Positions 19,803 to 52,737 of a stretch of 64,000 nt of DNA are shown here, one piece after another (the stretch's first letter is position 1; each line of letters opens with the position of its first letter). Source of the DNA: Raillietiella orientalis (lineage: Eukaryota); assembly GCA_036172245.1 (NCBI GenBank), contig JAYWIR010000039.1, positions 1,302,001 to 1,366,000 of the forward strand, given 5' to 3'. The position numbers and the translations under genes were made by a program. Under the pieces are notes generated by a model. The model was not told the DNA's origin. It worked only from the letters and a program-made list of their open reading frames with translations, and did no database searches.

Positions 19803-20434
19803 TCAGTCGCGCCTGTCCGGGTGGAGGTTGCGGTACATTGCACTGATGTCCTCCTGGGCGTTCAGGTAAAAGTTCGGTCCCGCCCACCTGCTGGAGGGGG
19901 GCCAGCAGATGGAGCACTGCTGCAGCGCTGTCATGTTCTGGAGAGCGGTGCTCGAGTAGGAGAGCCACGGGAAGAGGTTGCTTTCCTCCATCCAGGGCCT
20001 GCGGATGGACAGCTTGGGGTTTGAGGACGGCGGTGCCGACGGGAAGGAGAGAGCCGCCTTCTTCGACGACGCTTTCGACATGGGGAACTTGACCAGCTTG
20101 GGCTTCATCGACGTGGCCAGGCACAGCGGCTCCTGCGCCGCCCCCGCCGCCGACTCTTCCGCTATCGAGGCGGCGGACTCGCTCCTTGGGCTGGAGCCGT
20201 CCTCCACTGCCGCGCGCCGGGGGGATGGCGCGTGCTCGGGGGCCGGAGTGCTGACCACGTCGATGATCGGCGAAGGCGGAGGCGAGCTGACCTTGGACGT
20301 CGATGGCGACTGGAGATAGAAGGCCGAGTGGTTGGGGCCCTCCACGAAGATGAGGAGGTGCTTCCTCTGGATGTGCCAGACCAGCTCGTCCGGAGTGTTG
20401 AAGGTCGCGCCGCACTTCCCGCAGCAGTAGAGAC
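19803..20434 (-). CDS. Gene A coding exon 2: C2H2 zinc finger plus Ser/Pro/Ala-rich tail (spliced protein 309 aa)
   Basis: Branch-like CTGAC and acceptor ctctcctcgtAG|GT at 20435/20434, in phase with exon 1. Encodes (G)LYCCGKCGATFNTPDELVWHIQRKH (Y-x-C-x2-C-x3-F-x5-L-x2-H-x4-H) and runs in frame into track ORF 20345..19803 to TGA. Confidence 0.88.
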
Positions 20435-21584
20435 CTACGAGGAGAGCGCGTCAGGAGGAGGAGGATGCGCCGACCGCCCGGAGCACCTCGGAAAGGAACT
20501 GCCGGTTTCCGACTCTCGCTGCGCGAAAGCTCGGCCCGGCTCAGAGGACGCAGGATGGGGTGGGGGGTGGGGACTCGCCTCCTCGTCCCTCCGGAACGCC
20601 GCGCAGTTTCGAGTGGGGACGGCGGCGAAGCTCCGCGGCTGCCGGCCCCCGGCCGCTTCCTTTTTCCTCCTTTCCCCGACAGGAGTGGCAGCGGCTCCAA
20701 GGCGACGGTGGAGGCGGTCTTTCCGCGGCAGTCCCTCTGCGGAAAAGCCCCCCAAGCGGGCCGAGTTTCCTGCTGCAAGAAGGGGCCGCTCCTGGGATCC
20801 GCATTCCGAAGCGTGCGCCGCGCCAAGCGTGGCGCCTCTGCGAATTGCCAGGGATCCCGGGATGCTGGATCCGCTGTCGCGAAGGCGGCGGCGGCCACGA
20901 CGACCGTGCCCGCTCGGGCAACAGTCTCGGTCCGGCCGTCAGTCACAGTGGGCCACGCGAGCTCGGCCACGCTGGGCTCGCACGCAGCTCTTCCGAGGAG
21001 ATCCCTCCGAGGTCCCTCTTCGGCGGGGGAGGGCGGTTCCCAATTCGTGCTGGCACAGGAACGAATTCCCGGAGCACTTCTTGTGGGACGGAGGACCAAA
21101 TCGGGTGCTTGGCTGCCGTCGTCGACTTTGCCCTTCCTTAGTTGTCGGGCAGCGTCCGCGTTCCTCAAGACGGGGTCCAGGTGTGTTCCGGCAGGCGAAG
21201 GGCAGCGAGCAGCGCGTGCCGAGTGAACGGTCCTTTGGCGCTCGATCGGCAAGCGTTCACCAGGACGTCGGTTTCCGCCATTTTGCTTTTCTTCTTCTTT
21301 CTCCCCTTTTGTTTTTTTCCGTCCTCGTCAGATGACGTTGGTCCTCGAAAAGGGGAAAAGAGGGGCTTCCTTCCCCCGGCTCGGAAGCCAGCGGCGGCGG
21401 CGTTCCAAGGTCGCGGCCAGCGTTCTCGGGCAGAGCTGTTGCCCGTGAAGGCGCCGAGTGCCCAAGGGCGGGATTTTTTTTTCTTCTCTTCTTTCTCTTT
21501 TAGCACGCGCCCCATCGCCTTTTCCGGCTGCGAGCGGGAAGCGGGCGGGCGGCGGAACCGCGCCAAAGCACGAAGAGGGAGTAC
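20435..21584 (-). other. Gene A intron, 1150 nt, GT..AG, phase 1
   Basis: Joins the DM exon and the C2H2 exon in frame, at the same position (inside the Gly of Pro-Gly) as the gene B intron. Confidence 0.8.
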
Positions 21585-21882
21585 CTGGAAGCCTGTAAGC
21601 TCCTTCCTCGAGCGACTGCATCTGCTTGTCGAGCCTGGGCTTCTCCTCGGCGTTGAAGATGAGCTTCCGGCGGTGGCTCTGCTGCTTGGCCATGATCTGC
21701 TGCCTCTGGGACACCAGGTTGCAGCTGTCGCACTCGCACGCGGCGTACGGGCAGAAGCGCTTGTGCCCCTTCAGGGGGATTATCTTCATGTGGTTCCTGC
21801 ACCTCGCGCAGGTCGGCTTCCTGTTCCCGGAAGCGGCCTGGTTCATGTTCTCGCACAGAGAAGGCACGCGTATCGTAGGCAT
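21585..21882 (-). CDS. Gene A coding exon 1: DM (doublesex/mab-3) domain transcription factor, Dmrt-like
   Basis: MPTIRVPSLCENMNQAASGNRKPTCARCRNHMKIIPLKGHKRFCPYAACECDSCNLVSQRQQIMAKQQSHRRKLIF...RLPG has the full DM zinc-ligand pattern C-x2-C-x2-H-x8-H-x3-C-x4-C-x-C-x2-C plus the R..IM..Q...RR tail. It ends at a phase-1 donor CCAG|GTACTC (21585/21584). Confidence 0.93.
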
Positions 21883-24041
21883 TCGCTTATCTACAATTCA
21901 AGAGAACTTTCATGTAGCGCAGGATGCGCGCCCTCCACCGGCGGCGCGCCACCTGCTTCCCGAGCAGAGCGCACTGCCCCCGGGCTGGTACGTGCACGAG
22001 CGTGGTGCCGCCGTACAGTGTACAACCAACCAGCCAACCACCCGCCCGCCCTCGCCGCGCAGGTACACCGCACGTGAGTGTTTTGGCCGCACGCACGCAC
22101 ATGGATGCGTGCCTGCGCAGCGGCCTCGTCCACACGTGGATGCAGGCAGACCCCTTCATCTGCGCTGGAGCTTTCAAGGACCGGGAAGAAGGATGTGCCG
22201 GAGGCGGGGTGGGGTGTGCGCGTGGGTGGCGAAACCGACATCTTCGCCTCCTGCCTCTATTCGGGGAATTGTCCCCTTCCCCCTCCCCCTTCCCGCCCCT
22301 TTTGACCACGTTTCGCCGCGCGGGACGCTCCCTTTCGCTCCCGACATCCCGGCTGCAGCCCGGCGTCCGGCGGGGACCCCGGCTGACGTCACGACGGTTC
22401 CCTCTCCTCGCACCGGTGTCTATGTTTCCTCTTTTGTGCGAAGAGTGAGAGTCCCGAGTCCCGGACCGGTTTCAAAGGGGGATGCTGCGTTCCCATCCGT
22501 CAGTCTCGCTAAAGCGAGCCGAACGGAAATCTTTCTCACGGGGCGGCGGCGTTGCCCTTCGCGACAGCGCGCGTCTTCATCCCGCCCTTCGAAGGAGAAA
22601 TCCCGGAACGCGCTCTCCTGAGCTTCAGCGAGATGAGCCTTGAAGATGGCTGCGGATGCTGGGTTGCCCTCTGACCCGAGCGGCAGCGCGACGGAGCATC
22701 CGCAGCGGTCCTGCCGAAGTGGCGAACGCTCGAGTAGGCGGCGTTTGGCAGCTCGAGAGAACGGGAGGAGCAGCACCTGCGGTGGCTGCGGCGCTGGACA
22801 TCTGGAAACCATGGTCCCGGCGGGTTCTTCTGGATATCAGCCGAAAGGGGCAGGGAGCGCGCGCGCGACGCGTCCTGGGGACCGGATGGCACGCGGAGTG
22901 TCCCCACTTCCCCATGAGGAGTGGGGAGCTCTGAGATCGCAGAAACCCTCAGGTCGAGAGCTCGTCGTACGATGCGGTTATCCGGGAAACGTCCGTCCCC
23001 GAGGATTCGAGGAGAGCATCCTCTCGGTTACAACCAGAGGCTGGTGCCGGGGGAAGATCAGTTCGCTTGCCCTGGGGTTCGAAAGCCACCAACGCGGCGG
23101 CGGTAGGCGGCTTCCACGCCCGCCCGCGTGGACGAGCACAGTGGCTGGAGCTTTCTGTTTGGCGGGAAGGAGCCGCTTCGGGAACGGCGCGTTGCGGGGC
23201 GCGCCTGTCGCCCCTCGCAACGCGCGCAGACCGTCCGTCCCGGCGAACGCTCCTGCATGGGACGAACGGAGGTGGGAAGTGGCTCCAGAGGACACCCTGG
23301 AAGCGAGGGATCACCGTCCCCCGTCCACAGCAGCCCACGACTGGCACCGCTCCGAGAAAAGGGGAGCCGTGCTCTCCAGCGGCGAAACTGTGAACTCGGA
23401 CCTGACTTGAGGTCACGAGGGCTACATGCCATTTTCCCTTCCTTCGACGCGTTCATCAGTGAATGGGGGGGGGGGGAGGAGGAGGAAATCCTTTCGTGTC
23501 TTTCTTGTCTTCCGCGGGTATCGCTGCCCTCGTCGAAGACAAACAGCGTTTCCGTTTCCTAGGAGAACAGGATTCGTGACCAAGTAGCTGTTTGGGGGAA
23601 ATGAGTAGGTGAGGGTTTGCCCATCGCCCGCGTGTATCGGGCTGCTCGTCCATTTCACGAGGGGATGAGGTCGGTCTCCGTGGCGAAGATTTCGACCACG
23701 GAAAAAGATGCTCCTCATTTGGATCGAGTCTCACGTGCGGACCTTTACAGACCCGCGACCCTACGCATCGCCTACGTAAACACTTCCCTCCACTCCCACC
23801 CCATCCGCTCGCAACACGCGAAGAGCACCACGGACGAGGAGGGAACGCGAGTGAGTGTTGAGGAAAAGCAATCGGCGGTAGTTGGGTTGCGTGCAGCACG
23901 ACGGGAGCGGCAGCTTCCCAAAGCTGCAGCAGCCGTTCCACCTCCTTTTTCCCGCTTCGGATGCAGAAGAAACAAGCACAGAGCACGCAGAAGATAGTCA
24001 GTTCGAGAAGAGCACCATGCGACCGTTGCCAGGCAGCCTGC

Positions 24042-24768
24042 GCTGGCGACCGCGTGGCTGCGGCCTCCGCGCGCGAGGCACTAAGTGTCGCGGGTTCAAA
24101 TCCCGCCCTGGGAAGGATCGTTGTCGCCGAGAACGGAGGGAGCGCGTCGTGGGTTTCGAGTTCCTCCTTTCCCGCCGGATGACGCTGGTTGTCGGCCTAT
24201 CCTGGTGCGGCGCTGGTGGGAGCCGGAAGACCGCGTTGAGTGGACGAGATTAGAAGACGACTCTCCAGGTCCTTCGAGGGATCAAGGAGCCGTTTGGGTT
24301 CCCCTCAGGCTTTGAAAATGGCACCCTTCCATCGCGTGTCATGTCGTGGAGCTGGTTGATACTCCCCTCGGGGGAGTATGAGCTCTGGAGCGTCAAGAAG
24401 CGCGCTGCTCCCTTCGGGGAGCAGCCCTTCAGAGAGAAATCAGAAAGCGTACCTTCCCTTGGAACGGCTCCCTTGCGGGCGCCCTCCGGAGAAGAAAGAT
24501 GGGGTTCTTTTCCCCGGGTGTTCCTCCAGAGAGAACCAGGAAGAGGTTCCCTGCGGGATTCCCTCTCAAGAGCGAGAGAGGAACGGACTCCTTCCTCCGG
24601 AGCCTTCTGGATTCCCTGCGGGGTTGCTTTCTAACTAGAAGAGTCAGCACGCACCCTCGGGTGACGCGGACAGCGTCAACGAGCTTCGTGACCTCCCTCC
24701 CCCGGGGAAGCGCACGGTTCTTCAGCACTGGCGAGCCAGGAAAAGGAAACCCGAAGAAAGGAAAAAAA
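24042..24768 (+). mobile_element. tRNA-headed SINE-like repeat, copy 2
   Basis: GGTTCAAATCC at 24093-24103. Shares CAAGAGCGAGAGAGGAACGGACTCCTTCCTCCGG and the downstream GAAGAGTCAG...GGGTGACGCG block with copy 1; A-rich tail. Confidence 0.8.
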
Positions 24769-25959
24769 GCTGGAGGAGCAGTGTAGAAAGGGATGTCGTG
24801 GATGCACAAGAAAGAGGCAGCTGATCGCAACCCTCAGGAGCTCCACAGGGACGTTTCCTTTCGGAGCGACCGCTGATGATCGAGGGGAAGCTAGGACGCT
24901 GCTACGCGGCAGCACTGGCGCGCGCAGTGCGCATGCGGAAACCCGGAATGTCGAGCATTGGTGGCGCCTTCCGTGAAGAGAGAGATGCACCACCGCCGCC
25001 AGCAACAACAACAGCTGTTTCGAATTCTCAAGAGAAAGCGAAAATAAATAAATAAATTGAATAAGTGAATCGCTCTCGTGCGGAGGGAGTGGCTCCTTGA
25101 ACGCTTTGTGCGCGCGAGGGACGGTGGCCAATGGCGCGTGTTGCCCGCCTGTCAGGCTGCTCTTGGTTCAGGGCACCGGTTGGGCAAAAGCGGCCTTGCT
25201 CTGTGGGGCCGCGCGCGCGCGTCCGCGGACGGCTCGAAGCTTTTCTCGAGCTGGTGCCTCCACCCAGCGAGCGCTCCGCTTCTCCAGCTCCCCTTCTCTC
25301 CCTGGAGGCCCTTTCAGGGGGCTTCCCTCCACGGAGCAAAGCGCCGGAAAGACATGGAGGAAGCGCAGGTCCTCCCGAGTCTGGTGCTCGTCTGGGACGC
25401 CCGCGGAACAGGTACCGCCTGCGGACACTCGCGGACCACGCCAGAAGTCAGCGGCCAAGAGTCGGGAAAGATGGCAGAGAGGGAGGGGGGGGGGCATTCC
25501 CAATCCTCGTTCCACCCACGGCCCTGCAGCCGTCTGAACAGCTGTCTGGTTGGAGTTCAGCCGAAGTCTACCAGCCCACCGAGGAGACCTGCCGCTCGCT
25601 TGCCTGCAAGATCACCTCTTTCGCTGAAGAAGAAGACGACAAACCGGGGAAAAAGCCGAAAGATGAAACTGAAAAGCAAGCGCAGGCGGAGCGGAAGAAA
25701 GCACGGAATCGCCGTCGCCAGCACCGTGCGTTTCCCGGGTAACGGCGCAGCACACCGCCGGCGGTTGCGCGGAGGCAGAGCGGGTTGCCGACGGCACTCC
25801 GAGAAAACCGGAACGGGAATTCCCTGGACTCCGCTTCTAACCTCTCCAAAGAGTGGATGGCGCCCCTCGAATCCACTCGTTCGGGGGTGGACGTGAGGTC
25901 GCGGTTTTGGTGGCCTACAACTTCGAGTTTTGTTCTTCCCAGAGGCGGTGACCCCCTTT

Positions 25960-26640
25960 GTATTTTTAAGGGCGGTCGCAAAGCGCTAAAGAACCGTTCG
26001 CCTGGGGACTCACGAAGCTCTTTGACACTGCCCATGCCATCCGAGGTTCACGCTTTAGGTTAGGGGATGATCCCTCCGGGGTCACCCCATGAATCCAGGA
26101 AGGTTCCGTTCCTCTCGCTTGGGAGGGAACCCCGATTGTCTCTGAAGGGAACCCCGAAGGGGAGCCCTTGTTTTCTCTGGAGGGACCCTCCGGGGGAGCT
26201 ACACCTCGTTTCTTCTCCGGAGGGAACCCAAAAAGGATCTGCTCCTTGTCTGAACTCCTCTGAAGGAACCCCGAAGGGGTGCTTTGCGATTTCCTCTGGA
26301 GGGCCGTTCCCGAAGGGAGCAGCGCGCTTCCTGATGCTCTGGAGAGGCGGCGACCACCCGTGTGGAGCATCAACCCCAGCTCCATGGCACGCGATGGAGG
26401 GGTGCCATTTTCACAACCGGAAGGGTACCATGAAAGGCTCCCTGATTCCTAGAAGGACCTCGGAGGATCGACTTTGAATCCCTGCCAGTCAATGGGGGCA
26501 TCCGGCTCCCACTAGGCCGACCAGCGGGAGGGGGGACTCGAAACCCACGATGCATGCATTTCTCGGAGTCGATCCTTCACGTGGGGATTCGAACCCGCAA
26601 CTCCTGGCGCCACACGCGAGGAGACCGCTGCCGCGGGCCC
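25960..26640 (-). mobile_element. tRNA-headed SINE-like repeat, copy 3 (inverted)
   Basis: Reverse B-box GGATTCGAACC at 26585-26595. Reverse-complement body CCAGCTCCATGGCACGCGATGGAGGGGTGCCATTTTCACAACCGG matches copy 1. Confidence 0.8.
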
Positions 26641-28887
26641 TTTTGTTTGGGCGTCGCTGTCCACATGAACTGCGACGTGCTCCACCTGCTGGGAGAAACG
26701 GCGGTTCTCTTCAGGGGGTCTTTCGGTCCTCGCAGGCTGGGACGCGCAGCGTCTTGAAGAAGATGGTCAGATCCACGGCGGGCCTGGCGGCGTTCTTCTC
26801 CGCTCGCGCCGCTGGCTGTGGCACGGAAGGGGTGCACCCCTTGTCCCTTCGGCAGTGGCCTCTACTGCCGCGCGTGCCCCAAAAAGCCCTCCAGGGAGGA
26901 GAAAGGAGGGAAGCATCAAAGACGGCGGCAGGCGCGAGTTCCTGGAACGCGGAAGGCAGCTTCGGGACGTCTGGCGAAGATGTCCAAGCGAAGTGGAGGT
27001 GCCGCGAGTGCGCTCGCGAGCGACGGTGGTCTTCAGCGCCAGCGTTGCGCGCGCACTCCACCTTGGGTGCGCCGCGCCGGGACATTCGTTTCGACCGGGT
27101 TCCTTCCGTTCCCAGGACGGGGAGCGCTACCGAAACGGCGCGGTGGTGTTACGGGGAAGGGAAGGGAAGGGGGGAGGGGGGAAGAGACTCTCCGGGGCGC
27201 CGATGGAATGTAGCCGAGGGCCCCTTCTATCGAAGAGTGTAGAAGCGTGGCCGCTCTCGATGTGGTGGCTTCTTTCTGTTTTTTGCTCTCTCTCTCTCTT
27301 TTTTTTTTTTGAGAACAGAATAAAATTAAGGAAGGGGGGAGGGGGCACGCATCCGATGCATGCGCTGCTGCTGATTCCAGCCCAAACACAGAAGTGTTCG
27401 CACACGATTCCGTTTCCAATTAAAAACCCGAACGTCAGGAGATGGGACGGTAATGGGAAAACACGAAACCGTGTGTAGATCCATTAAACTGTAAGGTTTC
27501 GAGAAAAAATTCCTCCGAAAATTCCTCCGGGCACCGGGCGGGCGATCCGGAAGGCGTTTAGCAGGGAACGGCACCTTCTCCCTCTCGCGGGGCATCCGAA
27601 TGGGAATTAAAAAACGAGAGTTTTTAATTAAAAAATTTTATGGCTATCTGTAATTTATAGTGAAGGGAGTTCCACGGAGTAATGAAATTTGAATTCATCC
27701 ACCTCTCTCCACGCAAATTGCGTTGGCGCGTTACCAACTCTGCGCCCATTTTCACCTGCTCGAAATTATACAATCATCCGCTTTCGAATCGTCTCGAAAT
27801 GAAATATTTCGCAGGCAGCTATGTAATCCTGGAAGACGTCCCGTGTTCGCGACAGACTGCAATTGAATCCCCCCGGAGCGCGGAGGAAGTGCGCGCGTAC
27901 GTTTAATCTTTCGACGTGACGGCGGTTGTCTGTCCGCCATTTCGCCCGCCGCTCCTCTCTCCCCGTACTTATCGTCGTCCATCTGCTCGTGACGTAATTC
28001 ATCCTCGGCGGTTAATTAAATCCATCCATTCCATGTCGCACTTTTCGCGCTTGGCGCCTCGCAATCCACGTGGCTGATACGCTGCCGCAGCCGCTCGCCC
28101 TCGGGAAGGAGCAGGAGGGGAAAAATTCGCTGCGCCTGTCGCTCTCTCGCTGGCGCACGCATGGCCCCCCTCGAGGCGCACACCCTCCTCGCTGTCTCCT
28201 TGCCCCCCTCCCCCCCCCCCTATTCTCAGGCTCCGCTGTGCGGCGAGGGTTCCCATGCGGTGGGACACGCCCCCGGGGCTTATTCTCGAATGCCCGGCTC
28301 CCGCGCCGCGTTGCTGCTGCTGCCCGGAGCGAACCAGAAGAGCGTCCGCCCGCTCTACCACCGCGGTGCGAGCCCGCGTGCCTCCCCGAACACGAGGGCC
28401 GACACGGCAGTTGGTGCGATGCACGGTAATTTGAGGAAGAGCAGAGAGGGATCGTCAGAATGGGTCCAGAATGCCTTGTTTTCGGTGGCGCCTGACGAGG
28501 AGGAGGAAGAAGAAGAAGAGAGAAAAAAATCCTGCATGTGAGCCGCGCTCTTTCGTGTCTCTTGGCGCTACAACAAGCGCCGTCTCGTGTTACCCCGGCT
28601 ACACGGCGCGGAGATTTTCCAGAGAGTGTCACCCCGCGACGGGAATCCGATGGTCTTCTTTGAGACGTTACGGAATTCCCCCTTCCCCTCGGCCCGCACT
28701 GGTGAAAAAGTCTTCCAGACAAGAGCGCTTGCAGCTCTCGTGGTGCAAACCCCGCACCTCTCTGAAGAGGTGGCAGTGCGCTCGGGACGGTCAGCAGCGG
28801 CCTTGGTGTTCACTTTCTTCCTCCTCCTCCTTTTCTTCTTTCTCCCTTGCGCGATTTCGTGGCTGCTGGTTCTCCGGCGGCGGAACC

Positions 28888-29045
28888 GATGCGCCGGCGG
28901 GCGGATCCTCGGGGCACACACGGGAAGAAGGCCCACGCACGGAGGACGTCCTTCCGCAGAGCGACCGCGAGGCTGCGGCCTCCTCACGACGCGGCACCGA
29001 ACGTCGCGGGTTCGAATCCCACCCAAGGAAAGGATCGTCCGAGAA
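28888..29045 (+). mobile_element. 5' fragment of the same SINE-like family
   Basis: GTCGCGGGTTCGAATCCC..GGAAAGGATCGTC; similar to 30630-30785, including about 75 bp upstream of the tRNA-like head. Confidence 0.6.
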
Positions 29046-29399
29046 ATCCCGCCAGCCTTCCGTAACTTTCTCACGCGGCCGCGCAGCTTCGCGTGTCTGG
29101 GTCACTCAGTAGACGCGCGCGCGCAGCTTTTCGGGTTCTGTAGATTCCCGCGGGGCGCGCTGGGACCGAAAACAGATCGGGTTGCCTGCCTGCCTGCCGG
29201 CCGGCCGACCGACCGACCGACCCCTCTCTCCTTGCGTTGGGCGCGGGACATCTGTCCGGGGCGCCTAGGACGGGAGTGGTGGCGACGACGCCCGAGGCTC
29301 ACGTGGACTTTTCTCGAAGTCGCCCCGCACCTCCGCCTGCGAGCTGCGAGCGCTGCCGCGTGCGCGTCGTGGGTGACATGGGGGAGCGTGACCGCAGTG

Positions 29400-30480
29400 G
29401 TCCACCGGCGAGAGACGCGGCCAGCTGAATGCGTAAGCGGCTGGTGATGCCAGTTCGGCTTGGCAACCGGAGGTGCCACCGCATCGGACAACCAGAGCAT
29501 CCATCTCTCCCGCGTCCATCTCTCAGATGGCCCGGGGTGCGCTCCTGGGACCACTTGCGCAGGTCATAACCTGCCCGGTCGTCCGGACGCAGGTGTTGGG
29601 AAATGAACTGGGCAGAGGGAAGGAGATGGAAACGGGAAGAAGAGACCGGAGGACCGAACTGGGGAAGGGGGTGCCTGCGAGACCGCGCACGCCTCTCGGC
29701 TGGGAGGCAGCTCCGATCCGAACCGCAGTGTCTAAAAATAGATTTCGATCCGGAGGGCTCAGAGTGAGTGACTGCAACCTCAATCATGCGCGGCGAGGAC
29801 GTTCCATCAGGACTCGATGATGCATCTCGTTCGGAGCGGAACCCCCATCCTCTCCGTGCGCCGGTGCGAACAGGAGGGCGGCGTCGTAACTCACGGAGGA
29901 ATCTCCCGAGAGTCAGATGCTGCTGCAGTCGGGTCGTGCCTGCAGCGGCAGCGGTGGCGGCGAAGCAGGTCTCTCCCGCGCCAGGGGCTTCCTTTTTGTC
30001 GCCGCTGCCCCCTCGAACGCAGTTCAGGAGCGGTTCAGCGGCGGACCCGCCGCCAGGGGAAGCTGGGAAAGGGGGAAGGGAACGAGGCGGAACCTGCAGG
30101 TGCTCCCCCTCCCTCTTTCGCTTTCGTGCTGGACCGCGCGCGAAGGGAGCCGAGGGAGCGTCGTCTCCGCAGCGACGGGAAGGGGGAAGGGGGGGGGGGG
30201 AACTTTCCGGCGTCAACGGCAACGGCTCGCCTGAAATTCTTCTTTTTCAATTCGATTTTCCAACCTGCAAGAACGAACAAGAAAACGAGCTGTTGCGGAA
30301 CTTTGAGAGGACCAGGAAGAGAGGAGAGAGAGGAAGAGACGAAGGTGGGGAAGAGGAGGAGGAGAGAGAACGGCAGTTGGCGAATTTACGAGGCAGCAGA
30401 ACAATGCAGGTCTCGGAGATGAAGCGCTGCTCCAAGACCGAAAGATTCTTCAGCTCTTCGACCGGGAACCCATGAATTGC
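29400..30480 (+). mobile_element. Decayed CR1-group LINE 5' part (ORF1 and start of APE)
   Basis: RCHRIGQPEHPSLPRPS (like RAHR.G...PRP of RRM-type ORF1), then LKFFFFN...KNEQENELL resembling an APE N-terminus. Confidence 0.4.
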
Positions 30481-30629
30481 AAATGAGGCAAAGCGTAGAC
30501 GTGCTGTTTCGAAACGACTGCGTCCCGGAAATTGGATGATGCGCCTGCCGCTCCGCTGAGCACGGGGAAGCGATGGGAGCCGCTCCTGTAGCTCCGGAGC
30601 CAAGTCTTCCTCGCGGGGGGGACTCCCCG

Positions 30630-31440
30630 GATGCGCCGGCGGGCAGATCCACGAGGTGCAGACGGGGAGGAGGTCTACGCACGGAGGAGGTTTCTTCCGA
30701 CGCCGAGCGGCCGCGAGGACCTCCCCCACGCGCGTGGCACCAAGGCGTCGCGGGTTCGAATCCTGCCCGGAGAAGGATCGTCGTCGCCTAGAACGGCGGG
30801 TGCATTGTGGGCTTCGGGTGCCCCCCCCCCCTCACCTTCCCGCAGGATGGCCAACTGGTTGGCCTCGGTTGGATTCGGACGCGGCACTGGTGGAATGCGG
30901 ACGCTTGCCCCCCACGTTGACTGACCGGGACTAGAAAGTAGACCCTCCTCAAGTCCTTCCAGGACATCAAGGAACCCTTCGGGGTTTCCCTGCGGTTGTG
31001 GAAAGGGCAACCCTCCATTGCGTACTACGGGACCGGTAACTCTCCAGAATGGGAACAAGTGCGCTCCTCCCTTCGGGAGAGGCGCCTCCAGGGGAAATCA
31101 GGAAGCGACCTTTCGGGATTCTCTTTAGAGGAGTTCAAACAAGGAGCTTATCCTTTCCGGGTTCCCTCTGGAGGAAGAAACAATGAGGCACGGACCCCTT
31201 CTCGGGTATACCCTCCGGAGAGACTCAGGAAGAGAGCTCCCTTCCCTCCAAAGAGCGAGGGGAGAACAGACTCCTCCCTCCGGAGCCCTTCCTAAACTAT
31301 AGGGTGGTCCCTCCGAAGTCACCTCCTAACCTGAAGGGTCAAATGGATCCTCGGGTGGTGCGGACAGCATCAAAGATCTTCGTGAACCCTCCCCTCCCCC
31401 TTCCTTCGCCAGCGGCCGACGGGCCGCCGCTTCGAGCGAC
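30630..31440 (+). mobile_element. tRNA-headed SINE-like repeat, copy 4
   Basis: GGTTCGAATCC at 30753-30763, followed by the family body (GAAGGATCG..GAACGGCGGG..CAGGATGGC..CAAGGAACC..GGTTGTGGAAA..AGAGCGAG). Confidence 0.75.
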
Positions 31441-31647
31441 CTCGGTCAGCGCCACGCCACGGAGAGCACGGGAAAACGGTGGATCCCCGGAGCGGTCCGG
31501 ACCTCGGAGGGGATCCCGAGCTAAAAGGCGAAGACCTTGCGGAACGCCACGCGGCGGACGTGATGTCCCGTCGCCAGTGCAGGCCCGGTGACGCGGTCTT
31601 TCCGGGAACGGGAGCGCCAATATTGGTGCTTCTCACAGGGACGGGAC

Positions 31648-31690
31648 TGTCTGTCTGTGTGTGTGTGTGTGTGTGTGTGTATTTGTGTGT
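31648..31690. repeat. (GT)n microsatellite
   Basis: Read directly from the sequence. Confidence 0.9.
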
Positions 31691-32799
31691 CGCCCCGTTG
31701 CTAGGCAACGCGCGCGCCACTTCCTTCCGCGATTTTCCTTCCGACTGCGAGGGAGCTGCGGGCCACCTTCTCGGGCGCTTTGCCTGCGTCGATGGGGTTT
31801 ACTGGTCGTTGTCTCGCTTGGGCACCGCCGATTCGGCGAGGAGGAAACCCAGGAAGAAGGGATCGTTCCCGTTCGGAGTCTCCGTGCTGCCTGCAGGACG
31901 GAAAATTTCGTCGGATGACTTGGACGGAGACCCAGCGCGGAGATCTCCAGGAGATAGGAGGAAACAAGCAGAGGCGGAGAGCACCTCCGGAGGGAGACAA
32001 ACGATGTTTCTCTTGAAACGTGGGCGAGCTGAGAAGCAAGAGTCCTCCCACCCATCCCATTCCGTCCAGGAGACGGGGAGATCCCGTCAGGAGCTGCTTG
32101 TCCCCTTGGGCCGAGGATCATCAACCCGGCGACGGACGCCTTTGCGTGGCGACCGCGACTACCCCGGCATCGTGGATGCGGTCCGAGGTTTGGGGGCCCT
32201 TCCTTCCTTGCCCTTCCCGACTTGGCATCTCGGGAGCGCCGCCCGGGACGCGGCGCATCGCCCTCGGAGTGCAGGAGCGGGGGCAGAGAGGCCGACCGCA
32301 GGAGAGGAGGAAGGCCGCGAAGGTCCGGAAGCGGAACCTGAGCTTCCCCGAGATCCATTGCCGTGCGTCCGAGACGGAGCGTCTTCGGATCGACAACGGC
32401 AGCAGCAGGAGCAGCCGTGCGCTCGAAGAGGCCCGCCGCAGACATTCCGCAGACGCCGGGCACCGTCGGAGGCTGAGACTTTCGCTTCGCATCCGAGCGC
32501 GCTCGCGCGACGAAGCTGCACGCACCGCCCCTTCCTCTCCGGTGAGCTCCGGTCCCGAGTCCTGCATTTTCGCCAGTGGTGCCGACCACGACCTTCTCTC
32601 TCTTCCCAGAGTGAGCCCTGCGCCGTGGCGAAGCGCTCCGAGTTGACTGGCCTGCAGCCCGCAAGGTTTTCTGCAGCAGGAAAGGAGGAAAGGACGGCGG
32701 CGGTCCAGGTGCTCTTTTTGCCAGCGAGAAAGCTCCGGCACGAAAAGCTTCGAGTCTTCCCGCTCGCGGGCTCTACTGTTGCCAGGGGACGGGCAGCAG

Positions 32800-33400: not shown

Positions 33401-36400
33401 TCTTTGCACGCGTTCCCCGACCGACGCCAGCGCGCCGCGAAGGAGCCCTTCGCACGCACCTCCGCAGACAGGTAAGGACGGTGCCTGTGGACGTCGTCCA
33501 AGCGGTGAGCCTGCCGCCAGGTGGAGCCTGCGGGGACCGCGGCAGACGCCGACGCTCCCGGTGCGCGCGGGCTGCCATGCCGACATTTGCCCTGCGCGGA
33601 GCAGGGGGTCGGGAAGGATTACCACGGGAAACCCGGAGTCTCTGGAAAGCGGCCCGCACGAGGCGTTTCGGACGCCAGGACTCCGGGGAGCGAGAGGCGG
33701 CGGCGTGCCTTCACGGAAGATCACGGAGGAGCTGAGAGACTAAGGGAGCGCGCGGCCTCCGGAACGTCCACCCTGGGTACAGGAGCGTCTCGGCGCGCAG
33801 AGGAGACGCGTCTCCACGCTCGACGAACGGTCCTGGAGCGGTTCGTGGTTCCGAGGAGGTCCCCGGATCAGAGCGGACGGCGGAAGACAGCGAAAGGACG
33901 GCGGCCCCTCGCCCGGCAAGCCCTGAGCAGTGGACCGACTTGGCTTGCAATTCTCCAGCGTCCGCCTACTTGGCTGCCACACTGCTGCTGCATCTCACGC
34001 CGCGAAGCAGCTTCTGCTGGCACCTCCTCGTCTCCGATAGCCACCGGCAACAGCAGCATTTCTTCGCCTTTTTTTTTTTCTATTTTTCCTTCTCCTTCTC
34101 CTCGTCTGTTCCCGGTACCGAAGAATGGTCGGCTCTTGGAAGTCGGGACGTCCGCGAGCTTCCGTCTCGTGCCCAGCGCACTTCTTTACTGGATGAGGCC
34201 CGTTGGTACGAGCAGCGCAGGAGTCCCTTCGACCACCGTCTGGGGCAGCTGCCACGCGGTCTTTGCCCAAGAGGACGGAAGAGAAGCGGCAGCTTCTCCG
34301 AGAGGCGTAAGGCCGCAGCAGGAAACCCGAAGACACGGGCAGCGGCTGCGCTCCCGCGCTTTCGCACACCCGGGTGACCGCCGCCCAGGAGGGAGCTGCG
34401 GGCCACAGCCCTTTGCGGAGAGCCAGGAAGGCGCCCGGACCGGCGGCACGCGTCCGTTTCCCGCGGAGGAAGGCTCCCTGCCCGGCTGGGAGGTGGGGAG
34501 CAATCGCGGACCGAAACGGGGCCGGGGGGGAAGCTCGCCTCCCGCGACTTGGAACTGGACCCGCCACGCGGGATTTATTTTTAGCTCCCTCGAAGCCGCC
34601 TCCGCCACGCGACCTCTCGGCACCACGGAGCTCCTCGGGCTCTGGACAGGAGGCCACATGGGGCCGCGGGCACTGGGCTCCCAGCCGGAAGGTGGCACGC
34701 GAGCTCTCACCCCCTCGCACTAGGGCCCCAAACACGCGAGTTGTACCTTCCGCTCCCGACGGCAGCGGATCGCCACGAACACCGCGGAAGGCGGATCGTG
34801 CGCGCCTCTGCGGGCTGACCGCGGTGTTCCTGAGCGGGGGCAGTTGAAACCGCCCGCTGGTGTGCTGGCTGGATGACGTCCCGTCAGAAGTTTACGACGC
34901 ACAGACCGCAGAACCGCTGCTCGACTGCAGCTGCTGAATCATCTCGTGAAGAGAAGGAGAGGCGGAAACAACAACAAAAGAAGAAGATAGAGGGTGGAGG
35001 GGAGGGGGGAAATTCCTTCTGTGAACATGAAAGATGGCAGCCTGCTCGAGACAGCTTCTGGGCATCCGCCGGTTCCTTAACAGCGATGCGAGCGAGCGAC
35101 CGATGACCAGGGCTGTGTACAACGGGATGCACGGAGACGAAGTCTTCCCTCGGCGGTGTTCTCCGGGAGAGGCCCGCTACACCGGATGTGCGGGGGGAAC
35201 CTCTTTTGGAACCGCCCGCCTTCTCTTTGCAGCAGAAGATGGAAAGAGGGGGAAAGGGGGGGGAGCAAGAAGCACTGGCGGTTGGCGCAGAGGCCAGCGC
35301 CCGCGCGCCCCCCGGATCGTCTCCAGGGTCGTTCCGCCCGATGGAGGCGAAACCGTCGTCTCGCGCCTCCGCACGAAGCTGCGTCGCGTCTTCCACGACG
35401 CACCACGTGCGGATCGCCTGCGCCCGCCATCTTGAGGCCGAAACCTCCCTTCGCGCCGGTTCGCTCACGCCGCCGAGCCGCGCGCGGCTCGCGGGTCGAC
35501 GGAGAGAGGGCGCTGCGTGCGACGATGCCACCATTCGGGAATCATTTTCCCGCGTGGTGACCGAAGTCCGAAACGTGACTCTGGGGTCTTCTGGTGCGTT
35601 ACCAGCCAAAGTGTCGAGAGAGAATCGGAGACCGGGAAGAGCAAAGAAAAGGGAAAAGAAGGGAGGGAGGGGGGGGGGGGGAAGTTCCATGTGCACTCGA
35701 TACGTCTCTCTCCGCGAGAAGAGCCTTTCACGTGGATTTTTATGATACCAGCATGCGGACCGTTTGTCGGTCGTCTGCTGAGCGTCTGCCGAGCTGCGAG
35801 CTGAGATCCCACAATGTGTAGGCATGGAAATCAGCAGCAGCGCCTCCTCTCTGTGTGTGTGGGTGTTTTTTTTTTCTTTTGGTTGTTGCTGCTGTCATTC
35901 GTTCGTCTTTTCGCCATCCCTCCCCTTTTTATTTTATTTTATTTTTTTTCTTCCCTCCTCTCCCGGTCAGTTCGTCGTGTAACGCGATCTTTTTCGATTT
36001 CACGGCGCCACTGAGAACGCCTTGTAGCGGATTGCTAATTAGTCATGCCGCGAGCTGGGATCCGGAGGCACGGCTGATTCTGGCGACCCGGACGGCGGCG
36101 AACACTTTCCGTTTCCCGGACCGGCGCGCCCCCGCCGCGCGTGCGCGCCCCCGCCGTCCGGGCGCGGAGCGCATTGTTGCTCTCCGTGCCGCGAGCGCGC
36201 GCTGCGGGCGCCGCCGGACGGACGGAAAGGCAAACAAACGGCGAGCGAAAAGAGGGGGAGATAAATCCGAAGGCGGATCGGCTGCGCTGGCGCCGCAGGC
36301 GGCGGTGGTGCTCGGGAGAGAAGAAGGGCCCCCGCAGCCTCCTCCTACCCCGCCGAAGTGGGGAAGCGATTCTCACTCCCTCTTTCCTTTCCTTCCCCCC

Positions 36401-37465: not shown

Positions 37466-37736
37466 AGCAGCAGCAGCAGCAGCAGCACCAGCACCGCCAG
37501 CGCCAGAAGCAGCAGCAGCAGCCACGGAAGTCTTTTCGGTCGTTTTTCCCTTTGTCTCCTGCGCTTCTCGCGCCGCCTACGCCCTGCCTTCCGGTGCGCC
37601 CCCCTCGCGGGCGCGCGCGACGGCGCCCGGACGTCTTACCTCTGTGGGTGCGGTGGCGCCGGCGGCCGTCGTGGTCGCTGTCCTCCTCCTCCTCCTCGTC
37701 GTTGCGCGCGGCGGCGGCGGCGGCGGCGGCGGCTGC

Positions 37737-37767
<31 letters not shown>

Positions 37768-37935
37768 CCGTCGCAGAGGCCGCGGGGGTCGTCGGCCTCT
37801 TCCCCCTCCTCCTCCTCCTGCTGGCCTCGTCGCCGCCGTCGACGACCACGTCGGCGACGACGCACGCACGCAGGGGCGGCGGCGACGACGTCACGGCGCT
37901 TCGGTGGCGGTGGCGCTGCTGCTGCTGCTGCTGCC
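37466..37935. repeat. Compound trinucleotide repeats (CAG/CTG, GGC, TCC)
   Basis: Read directly from the sequence; explains the spurious polyQ/A/S ORFs in several frames. Confidence 0.9.
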
Positions 37936-41600: not shown

Positions 41601-41779
41601 TCTCGCGGTCGGAGGACTGTCCATTGGGTTGGGGTGATTGGCTGCTCTGAAGAGACAGAAACACTCCTTGGCGAAGGTGGTGTCCCTGCTAGTAGAGTTT
41701 GGTGCGATGCTGGAGCAAGTATCTCTTGCCTGGACGCGTTGTAGCATCTGAAATGTGTGGTAAACGTATGCGAGGGTTG

Positions 41780-44700: not shown

Positions 44701-45500
44701 CTGCGGCCGGCCCAGGTAGCAGCGGCCTTCGGGCGAGTTGGGGCGCTCGGAGAAAGCGACCTTCGCCGGCGTCCGGTGACCGGTAAACCTTGCCGCAAGG
44801 GGTGCCGTGGAGGGTCTCTCGCGGGTATGCCGAGTCTTTTTGGTGGGTTGCCGCTGTCGTAAAAGCAAAGGAGATCTGGGGACGTTGGATTTTTGTGGGT
44901 CGGTCAAGCGCGCCCTTTTGCTTGGTGGTTCAAGTTGAAAGCGGGCTTTCCACCCGGAAGCTAGGCTTCGGGGAGGCGTCTGGGAGCAGTGTCTTCGAAT
45001 CCATGGGCTTACTTCGAGGGGGTAGCCTGGGCGTGGGGACGTCTCCGGGTGCTCGTTGCGTGCGCAGCCCGCGTCTGCCTTGAGAGGCTGAATTTTAACC
45101 CGCAGACATTCAGCTGGGGCAGTATTGTCGGTGCTTCCTGCGTCGCCTTCCACCCGGTGCGACCATCCCGAGTGCGGTGGATACGTCAGGGTGTCGAGGA
45201 TTTCAAGTTGCCGCTGCTGCGGTCCATCTGGAGGACCTCCCGCAATGGAGGCTTCTCGGAAGAGCTCTTCGGCGAGGTTTACCTGCTCCGCTTGGAAATT
45301 CTGCGTGATGGTTCCGCGCCACCTCGAATCCGTCCTCTTCGATGTGATGAAAAATCTTTCGGGATGAGTCCAAGTTGAGACGAGGAAGTTGTGTGTGCGT
45401 CTTGTGGGCGTTGGTTGTTCATCTTTTTACTCGCAAGACTACTCCGCTTTGCGAACTTCTCCACCGCGCCCGGGGGTGGCGTGGGGGGGGGGGGTCGTGT
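41780..45500 (-). mobile_element. Near full-length decayed I/Jockey-group LINE (gag ORF1, RT, C-terminal zinc knuckle)
   Basis: ORF1-like TPAKVAFS..PEGRCYLG...RP then DYDCGPHG (about 44.8-44.6 kb); RT-like LVNIRAFEG (about 42.9 kb); C-terminal TPHLQRQCENPEPCRRCGALHFTV (about 42.0 kb, like HLL...PP.C..CG..LTV.H). Confidence 0.5.
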
Positions 45501-47699: not shown

Positions 47700-48950
47700 C
47701 CGGTGGCTCTGCCAACCCGTGCCATTGTCCTTTGTGCTACCGTCCTCGAGAGCCATTCTGTGGCTGCGGTGACGCTCGGCTTCGTCAAGCTCACGCTATC
47801 GAGCCCGAGGTAGAAAAATTTGTAGGGGCGCCAGCGGATCTATGTGGCGCACGGAAGGCTTTTGCCACGCCAGAGGACATCCCCAGCGGGCGTGGGTGTC
47901 ATTGGAGCTTGCCCAGGAACTGCGACTTCCTTTTTTCTCGAGTGGCCGATGCACCGGGAACTCGGCGCATCTGGCTCCGCCGGTTCTCTCGCGAAAGGAT
48001 TTTCCCGGAGCAGCGTTCAAACTTTTAAGGTTTGCCACGAGGTGGCGCCGGAGCCTCTTCGTCTGGATGGAGTGAAACGCTTCTAAGTTCCAGAGAGCCA
48101 TGCATCTGCGTCTTCTTTGGTACAGTACTTGATATCTTGGCTAATGCATCCTTTCGAGCTTTCTACGTTTGCGCAGGAGGAGATGCCTTCCTCTCCCCTC
48201 CCCCCTCCCTCCTTCCTTCTCTAGATGGATTTTAAATCGTATGAATCCTTGTAGATGGCGGGCCCGGTCGGTTTTTGCTTCGTAAGGCGGAATGTGACCT
48301 CTTCTGCTGTCAAGGTTTGGGTGCTTCTTACGCAGTGATCCACTCTTGATACCACTCTTGGAGAGGAGGAGCGGGAGAGGGAGGGGACTGATTCCGAAAA
48401 GAAGGTGATGATCTGGTGCTTCGGAAAAAGGGCGACTCTTCTCACGCACCAAGTGAATGGCATCTGGCCTTGGGGGCTCTCATCGTGGTGAGCGTGGGTT
48501 GCCCTTGCAGTCTGAGCAGCTCCTCACCACGTGATGTCGCGTGGTTGCCCCTTTCCCTGTGTCTGGGGTGGGGTGCTCCTGCACGAGATTCGCCCTCGGT
48601 GCTCTCGTTTGAATCTCTTCATCTTTCTCTGCCCCTCCTGACAGAAGCGCTGCCGACGAGGGAGGATGGATGCGGAGGTCGCGGATGCCCGTTTGCAATT
48701 CCACGCCCAGGGACAGCTGCCTGCAGATGGCCGCGCGCGCGTTTCGTGATCGAATGACGCGCGCGCGCCTGCTGAAATCCTTGTTCGTTTCGAAGCCTGC
48801 CAACAGATGGCAGGCGGCAGGACCTTCGAGGCACCCGTGCCTCCCGTGTTTACCGAAGTCGGTTGTTTGCGGATTCACGCGGCGACCGAACACACGAGCC
48901 TTCCCGAGAGCCGTTTCGGCAGCAGAAGCTGCATCTTTTACCACGGGGCG
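47700..48950 (+). mobile_element. Decayed non-LTR RT fragment
   Basis: ADLCGARKAFAT (like DL.KAFD), LGWGAPARDSPSVLSF (like GVPQGDPLSPLLF) and QLPADG (like FADD), in order. Confidence 0.4.
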
Positions 48951-51038
48951 GTGTGCTCAAGGGAGCGTGCGATGCTTCGTGTCGCATTGCTCGGGAGGGT
49001 CGGTTTCCTCCCCGCTCTCACGCCGCTTCCCGCGATGACGTAACGGCGGAACCACAAAATGCCGCTCCGCACGCTTTTCCGAAAGGGGTGTGCGGGCGAT
49101 GACGAGTTTCCCGCTCCCTCGACTGCTAATCTTCCGGGAAGCACGGAAGTGACCTCGGAGCACGCGAGACTTGTGCGTCCTTCGCACACGCTTGCGAGAT
49201 GGCGATGTCCTCCCCCCACCCCACCCCCGTTTTGATCTCCCGTTTTCCCCCTACCGCTGCCAAGCCGCCTTCCCAAAGTCACGGAACGGCTCCTTTCTTG
49301 TTTCCTTTCTCTTGCGGGAGGGGAGGAGGAGGAACGGAGGGACGCGTCTATAGCTGGGCGATGGTCGTTTTCGCAGGGTGCAGCGATCGCGAGCGTCTTT
49401 AAGCTCGCGGTGCCTTGGCAACGCTGCTATCGATTGCCGGTCGAGGAGGAGGAGGGCGACAACGTGCACTTAACAGAACGTTCTTCCGCTGTGCTGAGAG
49501 CGACGCTGCCTCCGTCAGCGGAGGACCCTTGCAGGCAATGCGCCCTCAGGCGCCCGCACCTTCGACTCCTCCCGCGTTTCCCCGAGTCCCGGCTGGGGCG
49601 CCAAGGGCGGTGGGGTGCCGCCCGCAGTGCCCGTCCCGAGAAGACGGCGTCCGTCGCTGAGACAAACGGAGCGGCCGCCGCCGCCGAGACGCACCACGCA
49701 TCACCTCCGGAACTTCCCGCGGGTCTTTGCCTCCTGGCGATTGGCGTCGCGCGCGACGACGCGCGGAGCCGGGGCGTGGAGGAAGCGGCAGTGGCGTCTC
49801 CTCCTCCTTCCCGGAAGTTTCACTCCGAGGCCTCTTCGGAGGCGCCTTCCTTCCTCTCGTCTCTCCTCTCCGGCAGCCCGGAGCGGGGAGGCGCGCCTCT
49901 CTCGCTCGTCGCGCGCGCTGCTGCCTCCCGGCCGAGCCGCGAACCCGAGGGCGGAAGGGAGACCGCGGCGGCGGCCGCAGCAGTTCGTCGGGCGCCTCGG
50001 GGCAACGATCGGGCCAGGCGATTCTCCCTTCCCCCCTGCAGGACCGCCTCCAGCCACCGGGACCGCGGATGGTGGCTCCACCCGCGCGAGCAGATTCGCA
50101 GGGACCTGGTCCCCGCGTTCAAGAAGCGTTTCTCCCGCGCGGGGCGGGCATTCGCGGAGGAAGGCCGTGCGCCGTCCGACCGGACGCTGCCGCTTTGTCT
50201 TTGCCTCCCACTCCCCCCCCCGTCTTGGCCTTCCCGCGCCGCCGCCCATGCCGCGGCACGCAACGCCCATAACTCCTGGTCCGTTCTTTTGTCTGCAATA
50301 GCAAGGACCACGGCAGGTATCCCTTTTTCTTTCTTTCTCCCCCCCCCCCCGTCGCGTCCCTCCGGTCGGCCTTCGACGCTGCCGCGTCTCTTCTCTCCTC
50401 GCGGGACCCCTGCAAAGGTGCGGGCCGTCCGCTCCGCACGTTAAGACCCTGTGCGGGCGGAAGCGGCCGAAGGTTTCCCGGCGGCGCGCGTGCCACGGGG
50501 AGGGCGGAAGCAGGGGCGAGGCGTGGGCGCTTGCGGTGGTACCGACCTTTCCTCCGGGACTGCGCGCGCCTTCCGCTCCCTTTTTCCAGCCGCCGAACCC
50601 TTCCTGCGAAGAGCCCCTCTCATCCAGGCGTTTTTTTTTTTTATTGCTCCTTCGGGGTGGCCGCCGGTCGAAGAGGGTGAGGGGCCGTCGTGGGTCGCCC
50701 CCCCCCTCCGGGGATCGTCTCCCCCGGGGGGCCGCTCCGTCCTCCGAGCGGGCGCGCTGCCGTCGCGGGGGTCACACGGACGCGCCCGCGGCGCGTGGGG
50801 CCTCCTCTTCGACGGCCGTCCTGCTGCTCCCGGTGCTGCTGCTTTTCTTTCTCATGTGTGTTTTTTGTTTGTTTTTTTTTCTTCTTCTTCTTGCTCTCCT
50901 CCCTCCGTGGTCAGGAGGAATTTCGGTCCATCGGTCTTCGGGAATTTAGCTGCCTGGCAACACATCGACACAAGAGGAAGGACGTCGAATAAGACAAAAC
51001 GGCAGGAGGGGAGAGGAGAGGGAGAACAAAAAGGGGGA

Positions 51039-51041
<3 letters not shown>

Positions 51042-51071
<30 letters not shown>
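51042..51071. repeat. A30 tract (U30 in gene B sense), about 38 nt after the stop codon
   Basis: Read directly from the sequence. Confidence 0.9.
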
Positions 51072-51073
<2 letters not shown>

Positions 51074-51108
51074 CAGAGAGATGTCGGCGGCGTCGGCCGC
51101 CGGTCCTG

Positions 51109-51614
51109 TCACTGGTACTCCCAAGGTCGTATGATGGTGTGCATGCTGGTGTAGAAGAGTCCCTGGTTGCAAGGGTAGGTGGAGATGTTGTCGTCGCCGA
51201 ACGTGAGGTACCCGCTGTTGAAGCTTTGGTTGAACACTTTGAAGTCCTTCTGGGGCTCTCCCTCCGCCCCCGCGGGGACCCTGGCCGCGCTCCTGTGGGA
51301 GCGCGCAGAGGCGGCGGCGGCGGCGGCGGCGGAGGCCGTCCTGTCGAAGTGGAGGTCCTTCCACCGCTTCTTGGGAGGCGCGTGGTCGCTGACGACGTAG
51401 CGGCCGTCCATGTCCGCTAGATTGGCTTCGGCGGGCTGCAGCGGCATGCCCGGGTCGCCGCCGCCGCCGCTGTTGCTGTCCTCCGGGTAGGACGACGACG
51501 AGGGGCTGACGTCATCGTACTGCCGGTAGATCTGCTTGTGGGTCTTCTGGATGTGCTGGATCAGCAGCTCGCTCGTGCCCCACTCGCTGTGGCACAGTCC
51601 GCAGAGGAAGATGC
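51109..51614 (-). CDS. Gene B coding exon 2: C2H2 zinc finger plus tail ending IIRPWEYQ (spliced protein 256 aa)
   Basis: Acceptor gttttcctcccgcccgcAG|GC at 51615/51614. Encodes (G)IFLCGLCHSEWGTSELLIQHIQKTH (F-x-C-x2-C-x3-W-x5-L-x2-H-x4-H); stop TGA at 51111-51109. Confidence 0.9.
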
Positions 51615-51800
51615 CTGCGGGCGGGAGGAAAACGGGGCGGTTCAGTATGCGAGCGTCAGGGAGCTTCCCCTTCCCCTCCTGGCCCTCCGCCCGGCGGGGG
51701 TGGGGGTGGGGGTGGACGCCCTCCCTCGGTCGCCCCCGTGCTCCCGCCCCTGCCTCCCTCCCGGGCCTCCCTCTCACCCTCCCGCGGCGGGGCTGCTCAC
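51615..51800 (-). other. Gene B intron, 186 nt, GT..AG, phase 1, in frame and stop-free
   Basis: GTGAG donor, CTGAA/CTGAC branch candidates, pyrimidine tract and CAG. Removing it aligns gene B with gene A at the PG junction. Confidence 0.8.
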
Positions 51801-52065
51801 CGGGAAAGTTGCTCGAGTCCGCCTGCATCGTCTCCAGCCAGCTCTTCTGCTTCTCCGTCTTGGGTTTCTCCTTGGTCTCGAAGTCCAGCTTCCTCCTGAG
51901 AGACTGCTGCTTCGACATGATGATCCTGCGGTCCCGCACGAGGCAGCAGTGGGAGCACTGGCAGTTATCGTACCGGCATTTTCCCTTGTGACCTTTCAGT
52001 TTGCTGAGGATCGTGTGATTCTTGCAGAGGGCGCAATGAACCTGTATGGTTGGTTTCTCACTCAT
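51801..52065 (-). CDS. Gene B coding exon 1: DM domain transcription factor, paralog of gene A
   Basis: MSEKPTIQVHCALCKNHTILSKLKGHKGKCRYDNCQCSHCCLVRDRRIIMSKQQSLRRKLDF...NFPG has all 8 DM zinc ligands and the LKGHK motif. Phase-1 donor CCG|GTGAGC at 51801/51800; in-frame upstream TAG at 52123-52125. Confidence 0.93.

Positions 52066-52267: not shown

Positions 52268-52300
<33 letters not shown>

Positions 52301-52700: not shown

Positions 52701-52737
<37 letters not shown>

Follow-up and report, generated by a model that had tools for sequence, protein, structure and literature searches.

We analysed a 64,000-nucleotide stretch of contig JAYWIR010000039.1 from Raillietiella orientalis (hereafter the window; positions are counted from its first letter). 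Two intact genes lie about 30 kb apart on its minus strand, gene A at 21882-19803 (309 aa) and gene B at 52065-51109 (256 aa). In each gene, an exon encoding a DM domain is followed by an exon that opens with a C2H2 zinc finger. The two genes agree in domain order, their exons are coding, and both modules carry all of their zinc ligands. The features of the two genes are as follows.

21880-21882, minus strand: gene A start codon (ATG); a TGA in the same frame lies 18 nt upstream
21585-21882, minus strand: gene A exon 1 (coding part), with start codon, DM domain and conserved linker; its last base is the first base of a split Gly codon
21682-21822, minus strand: gene A DM domain, residues 21-67; Pfam PF00751 positions 1-47 of 47, 80 bits, E 1.2e-22
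20435-21584, minus strand: gene A intron, 1150 nt, GT..AG, phase 1; donor GT at 21584-83, acceptor AG at 20436-35
19803-20434, minus strand: gene A exon 2, with C2H2 finger, disordered Ser/Pro/Ala-rich tail and stop codon TGA at 19805-03
20358-20429, minus strand: gene A C2H2 finger, C-x2-C-x12-H-x4-H, matching the strict pattern; Pfam zf-C2H2 23.4 bits, E 7.6e-5
19992-20006, minus strand: gene A I-x-RPW motif, with invariant I, R, P and W columns in the exon-2 alignment
51801-52065, minus strand: gene B exon 1 (coding part), with start codon (ATG at 52065), DM domain and conserved linker
51907-52038, minus strand: gene B DM domain, residues 10-53; Pfam PF00751 positions 4-47 of 47, 54.3 bits, E 1.2e-14
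51615-51800, minus strand: gene B intron, 186 nt, GTGAG..CAG with a pyrimidine tract before the CAG, phase 1, in frame and stop-free
51109-51614, minus strand: gene B exon 2, with C2H2 finger, disordered tail and stop codon TGA at 51111-09
51538-51609, minus strand: gene B C2H2 finger, C-x2-C-x12-H-x4-H, matching the strict pattern; no Pfam match
51121-51135, minus strand: gene B I-x-RPW motif; three residues separate it from the stop codon

The coordinates and both gene models had been put forward in an earlier note on this DNA, and they were correct base by base. The same-strand pair that it described, with a DM exon and then a C2H2 finger exon, was borne out by the sequence, the Pfam DM matches and the strict finger pattern. 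It had also reported a shared phase-1 intron in a Pro-Gly pair. In both genes, the Gly codon after a Pro codon is indeed split by a GT-AG intron of the same phase and position, with G before the intron and GT (gene A) or GC (gene B) after it. The two exons of gene A are in different reading frames, and exon 2 has no Met ahead of the finger in frame and thus no start codon of its own, which agrees with the earlier claim that the gene A fusion requires splicing. The DM and finger parts of gene B are 186 nt apart and form a single open frame even when unspliced. Reading through the gene A intron leads to a stop after about 85 further codons, and no Pfam family was detected in this read-through stretch.

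If the intron were retained, the gene B mRNA would still encode the DM domain and the finger, plus a 62-residue Gly/Arg/Pro-rich insert, and the gene A mRNA would encode only the DM domain, in a product of about 184 aa. The contigs of one DNA run (share 0.08) on 12001-32000 were short; they comprised two contigs identical to 19578-19855 and repeat pile-ups, and none of them held an informative joint at gene A.

The G+C content of the window is 59.7%, with a CpG observed/expected ratio of 1.0 and a TpA value of 0.43. Such a base composition appears unusual for most animals. The G+C content at the first, second and third codon positions (GC1/GC2/GC3) was 0.51/0.43/0.89 in exon 1 and 0.53/0.55/0.89 in exon 2 of gene A, and 0.43/0.39/0.82 in exon 1 and 0.57/0.48/0.91 in exon 2 of gene B. 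Unlike the exons, the gene B intron had a flat profile (0.84/0.65/0.82), as expected of non-coding DNA. Every open frame of the window was scanned for 40-codon stretches with the GC3 signature. The scan returned 12 rows, seven of which were the four exons or their antisense shadows. The ends of the periodic stretches lay at most a few codons away from the predicted donors and acceptors, and no GC3 periodicity was flagged inside the gene A intron. The other five rows were short (40-51 codons), located at 32290-32427 (both strands), 33985-34113, 50022-50141 and 56848-57000, and Pfam detected no family in them. Apart from the exons of genes A and B, no periodic segment of at least 52 codons was found in the 64 kb.

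By chance, other parts of the window contain stop-free frames as long as 550 codons. Their G+C content was flat by codon position, and their translations were junk-like. No Pfam family was found in 75 of the 89 stop-to-stop frames of at least 200 aa; the remaining 14, which overlap genes A and B, were left out. As the long open frames were flat and gave no Pfam match, the open reading frame (ORF) track of this GC-rich window is misleading. Judged by GC3 periodicity and Pfam, the DM genes A and B are the only evident protein-coding genes in the 64 kb.

The DM domains of both proteins scored far above the Pfam cut-off of 27 bits. The eight zinc ligands (C-x2-C-x2-H-x8-H-x3-C-x4-C-x-C-x2-C) were all present and invariant between A and B. 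Together with the aligned ligands of the finger, this agrees with the claim of the earlier note that both copies retained every zinc ligand. A profile of the A and B exons was compared with the PDB, and it matched the DMRT1-DNA structure 4yj0 (E 1.2e-17) and Dsx 1lpv (E 9.7e-14), with no other match at E ≤ 0.001. The recognition helix of both proteins contains the residues KQQS, which were found in two of the 211 DM-domain rows (database matches and window), namely A and B only. The relatives have a hydrophobic AQVAL-type stretch at this position.

The finger was identified by the strict pattern [FYW]-x-C-x2-C-x3-[FYW]-x5-L-x2-H-x3-5-H. The window, translated in all six frames, contained it exactly twice, starting at 20429 and 51609, and the pattern occurred in none of 100 dinucleotide-preserving shuffles of the window. 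A loose pattern of the ligands only averaged 0.31 matches per shuffle. The finger starts two codons (A) and one codon (B) behind the split Gly codon at the acceptor, and the aromatic and Leu core positions are in register in both copies. When 34-residue finger peptides were compared with the PDB sequences using phmmer, peptide A gave 115 matches at E ≤ 10 (best E 2.3e-7), and peptide B gave 13, the best of which was a yeast ADR1 finger (E 4.2e-4); the matches of both peptides were C2H2 fingers. In AlphaFold2 models built on two-sequence alignments, residues 1-25 of each second exon form two short strands followed by a helix (residues 14-24/25), namely a beta-beta-alpha fold, which is a prediction only. 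The predicted local distance difference test score (pLDDT) of the finger was 92-94 in A and 93-95 in B, and nearly all residues downstream of the finger scored below 50. At the canonical base-contact positions (-1, 2, 3 and 6), assigned by inspection, A has T/D/E/W and B has T/E/L/Q, without basic residues and with differences between the copies.

We then compared the two proteins with each other. BLASTP of spliced A against spliced B gave one colinear alignment with 49 of 115 residues identical, 62% positives and an E value of 8e-29. This alignment spans the DM domain, the conserved linker, the splice junction and the finger, and with the gene B intron removed it crosses the junction free of gaps. 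Counted on the alignment, 50 residues separate the last cysteine of the DM domain from the first of the finger in A, and 53 residues do so in B. The DM cores are 56% identical over 50 columns, and the best match of B is A. A tblastn search with B found the finger exon of A (E 0.001), with 34% identity over 32 aa in the finger region. These values are close to the identities counted by hand in the earlier note (29/52 for the DM domain plus tail and 11/30 for the finger region). No tandem or dispersed repeat linking the two loci was detected at the DNA level. The overall identity is 43% (49/115), and the proposal of the earlier note that the duplication is old is supported. We conclude from these comparisons that A and B most probably arose by an ancient tandem duplication of a gene in which the DM domain and the finger were already combined.

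To place the combination of a DM domain and a C2H2 finger among known proteins, the DM exon of gene A was searched with phmmer against 1.84 billion representatives. This returned 2409 proteins at E ≤ 0.001, the best 150 of which were inspected. With four proteins from a word-index search, they formed a comparison set of 154. No match among the best 150 of the 2409 neared identity, indicating that the library contains neither the gene A protein nor any close orthologue of it. The pattern C-x2-4-C-x12-H-x3-5-H was found in none of the 154 proteins. Pfam was run on 148 of the nearest DM proteins, leaving out the two longest; it detected the DM domain in all 148, and DMA, DSX_dimer and the Dmrt1 region in two each, and no C2H2 family at E ≤ 0.01 in any of the 148. 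In metagenome contigs, 63 DM loci 1.2-20 kb in length were examined, including as much as 10 kb of flanking sequence if the contig extended that far, and none of them had the finger pattern in any frame, the A/B linker or KQQS. In prokaryotic genome contigs, none of 58 pattern-matching stretches was confirmed as a relative by tblastn.

Searches with other parts of the genes gave similar results. In the word-index protein search, the finger-plus-tail exon of gene A matched no protein at E ≤ 10, and the gene B read-through matched none at E ≤ 0.001. Gene A exon 1, compared with longer proteins by the same index, gave five matches among 18 candidates, all DM-only or DMRT1. In the Protein Atlas, gene A exon 1 fell to DM-only clusters, mostly of Nematoda and Arthropoda, and the gene B read-through met only sub-0.9 zinc-finger clusters, for example those of Trps1 and basonuclin. 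Neither these clusters nor the base composition lent support to the arthropod setting in which the earlier note had viewed the genes. A tblastn search of the window with the 154 relatives, two of which carry DSX_dimer, found nothing beyond the two DM exons except one chance match, indicating that no DMA or Dsx-dimer exon is hidden nearby. That match, a possible third DM fragment at 14295-14420 (E 0.003), was rejected, as its translation lacks the DM cysteine pattern. The absence of a DMA or Dsx-dimer domain was therefore confirmed by Pfam and by tblastn.

Titles and the beginnings of abstracts, in a literature coverage that lies outside most subscription journals, described no DM+C2H2 protein. 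The available part of a panarthropod account lists as DM-associated domains DMA, the Dsx oligomerisation domain, a short conserved motif, a second DM domain and an RBD-like motif, and no C2H2 finger (PMC6604209). The earlier note had called the architecture unfamiliar, and no other instance was found in the 154 nearest DM proteins, the 63 metagenomic loci or this literature. The description of a DM+C2H2 subfamily as undescribed is provisional. One database match, P0008, is a Pro/Ala/Arg-rich protein with two DM domains that is 56% identical to the DM exon of gene A. It seemingly comes from a similarly GC-rich genome and might belong to a related organism.

Beyond the finger, the tails of A and B cannot be aligned with each other, except that both have I-x-RPW in common. 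The residue before RPW is I in B and R in A, and is thus non-aromatic, as compared with the C-terminal W/F/Y-RPW tetrapeptide by which Groucho-recruiting WRPW-type repressors bind the Groucho/TLE WD domain. I-x-RPW may be a putative short linear motif of the WRPW kind that recruits co-repressors, with a non-aromatic first residue, although this is speculative.

A tentative mechanism can be outlined. Proteins of the Dmrt family contact DNA with the zinc module and the C-terminal recognition helix of their DM domain, usually as dimers or higher oligomers, and the match to 4yj0 fits this picture. By analogy with DMRT1 and Dsx, the DM domains of A and B would be sequence-specific DNA binders, and the KQQS residues shared by their recognition helices suggest a shifted preference for target sites. 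The finger would sit where other Dmrt subfamilies hold the UBA/CUE-like Dsx-dimer or DMA domains. Since its contact positions have no basic residues and differ between the copies, it is most likely an accessory module, for partner binding, self-association or backbone contact, rather than a base reader. On a more speculative level, I-x-RPW in the disordered tail could recruit a co-repressor. An origin of the finger by exon shuffling is plausible and fits the phase-1 exon; no donor was found. That the genes act in sexual or neural differentiation is a guess based on family membership only.

Taken together, we consider it likely that A and B are intact, anciently duplicated Dmrt (DM-domain) genes whose ancestor already had one C2H2 finger, 50-53 residues past the last DM cysteine and at the start of the next exon. 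Several points weigh against this interpretation. Over the 50 columns of the DM core, four unrelated DM proteins share more identity with A (62%) than B does (56%), and a free quick tree search did not pair A and B. The evidence of conservation comes from these two paralogues only. The finger of A scored 23.4 bits in Pfam zf-C2H2, below the cut-off of 25.2, and that of B gave no match at E ≤ 1; of the Pfam check proposed in the earlier note, the part concerning the DM domain in both proteins and the lack of DMA and DSX_dimer stood, but the finger did not reach the Pfam cut-off. Single C2H2 fingers often score under the gathering cut-off. The exon joins, 21585 to 20434 and 51801 to 51614, are predictions from the DNA sequence, and the roles of the finger and of RPW are putative.

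In the DM-domain phylogeny, also proposed in the earlier note, the tree of the DM core (211 rows, 50 columns) was unresolved, with 105 of its 198 inner branches open and no starred clade containing A or B. A tree in which A and B were constrained together had a log-likelihood 80.95 above that of the free quick search, with p-AU 0.938 in the approximately unbiased (AU) test. Thus, the sisterhood of A and B is not rejected, and the free search was poor.

Three other explanations were weighed. The architecture might be real but not new, if DM+C2H2 proteins were already present in public annotation, such as InterPro architecture tables or an annotated proteome of this lineage, without having been discussed, and A and B were just further members. 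We regard this as unlikely, though it deserves serious attention, as the matches inspected were the best 150 of 2409 and most subscription journals lay outside the literature covered. None of the 154 nearest DM proteins had the finger pattern, however, and none of the 148 scanned had a Pfam C2H2 domain at E ≤ 0.01; neither did any of the 63 metagenomic DM loci show the pattern, the finger-plus-tail exon had no protein match at E ≤ 10, and the panarthropod domain list, as far as available, is without C2H2.

It is also conceivable that the DM and finger exons do not belong to one mRNA, the finger exons coming from other transcripts or being alternative, so that the fusion would be an artefact of the gene models. 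The dsx gene and other Dmrt genes are known for alternative 3' exons, and the gene A intron is 1150 nt long, with read-through giving a DM-only product. We nevertheless judge this improbable, because the order of DM domain and finger and the phase-1 split codon recur in two copies of only 43% identity, the finger exon of gene A has no upstream in-frame Met, the parts of gene B are in one open frame 186 nt apart without splicing, and the 64 kb hold no other coding-periodic segment of at least 52 codons. The suggestion that A, B or both are young pseudogenes, relics without expression whose frames are open only through GC-richness, draws on the chance stop-free frames of 400-550 codons elsewhere in the window, which have flat G+C and no Pfam family. 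It appears more improbable still, as the four exons have a strong third-position G+C bias, unlike the chance frames, and the 12 zinc ligands per protein, the hydrophobic core of the finger and the canonical splice sites were kept despite divergence to 43% identity.

Genes A and B probably represent a real and likely lineage-specific Dmrt variant whose accessory domain is new, a reading well supported at the level of gene structure. A further-reaching proposal is possible, and we put it forward only tentatively: the pair may form an undescribed Dmrt subfamily, in which a single C2H2 finger took the place of the UBA/CUE-like accessory domains known from Dsx and DMRTA, alongside a changed recognition helix and what may be a co-repressor motif, and it could act as a lineage-specific switch of sexual differentiation in an unusually GC-rich eukaryote. 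No regulators of sexual development are shared more widely among animals than the Dmrt genes, whose subfamilies are distinguished by the part behind the DM domain (nothing, DMA, Dsx dimer or a second DM). A subfamily with a classical finger at that place would, if true, provide a new tuning of DM function through the choice of partner or extended DNA contact. Should the organism also belong to none of the well-sampled animal phyla, the diversity known for DM domains would be broadened. Two paralogues with one finger each would then make a compact test case, and the subfamily would point to candidate genes of sex differentiation in this organism. The present value lies in a well-supported observation of gene structure.

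Several other features of the window were recorded. Clusters of CAG/CTG and GGC/GCC trinucleotide runs, forming the imperfect inverted repeats I3 and I4, were located at 37468-37933 and 52270-52735, the latter directly upstream of gene B. Poly-A/T runs of 12-30 nt were dispersed over the window. At 15336-18003, 28676-29342 and 30010-30676, the contigs of the DNA run piled up, with a summed word depth of 100-5300 compared with 1-5 over the genes, indicating that these three stretches are high-copy or low-complexity repeats in that sample. ARAGORN called a 90-nt tRNA-Arg (anticodon GCG) at 24026-24115 on the plus strand. We regard this as doubtful, probably a false call or a degenerate copy, as Rfam found no tRNA there at the gathering score or at E ≤ 0.5. 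Over the whole window, Rfam gave nothing at gathering scores, and at E ≤ 0.5 only sub-threshold matches at chance level.

We finally compared A and B with known systems. Like the single-DM proteins of the DMRT1 type (human DMRT1, 4yj0), both have an N-terminal DM domain with the full CCHC+HCCC ligands and a C-terminal recognition helix, and mammalian DMRT1 is 57% identical to gene A over the DM core. They differ from this type in having no Dmrt1 region (no Pfam match to PF12374), in the KQQS of the helix and in the C2H2 finger behind the DM domain. The two-DM proteins (MAB-3-like; P0006-P0012) were the top-scoring relatives of the gene A DM exon among the best 150 of the 2409 (E 6e-36 to 1e-24), with high scores that arise because two or three DM stretches add up. 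Such proteins carry a second zinc module as A and B do, but it is another DM domain and not a C2H2 finger.

Doublesex resembles A and B in that its DM domain is followed by a small, independently folding second module on a downstream exon. In Doublesex, this module is a UBA-like helical domain, whereas that of A and B is a zinc finger; DSX_dimer (PF08828) was matched at E ≤ 1 in neither exon 2, nor was it found in the window by tblastn. DMRTA, Dmrt93B and Dmrt99B likewise combine a DM domain with a conserved accessory domain, but that domain, DMA (PF03474), was unmatched in A, in B and in the window by Pfam and tblastn. The finger itself is similar to classical H-x4-H C2H2 fingers (yeast ADR1, 2adr/1paa; Aart, 2i13) in ligand spacing, hydrophobic core and predicted beta-beta-alpha fold. 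In contrast to these, it is a single finger and not part of an array, its contact positions are without the usual basic or polar residues, and it is located behind a DM domain.

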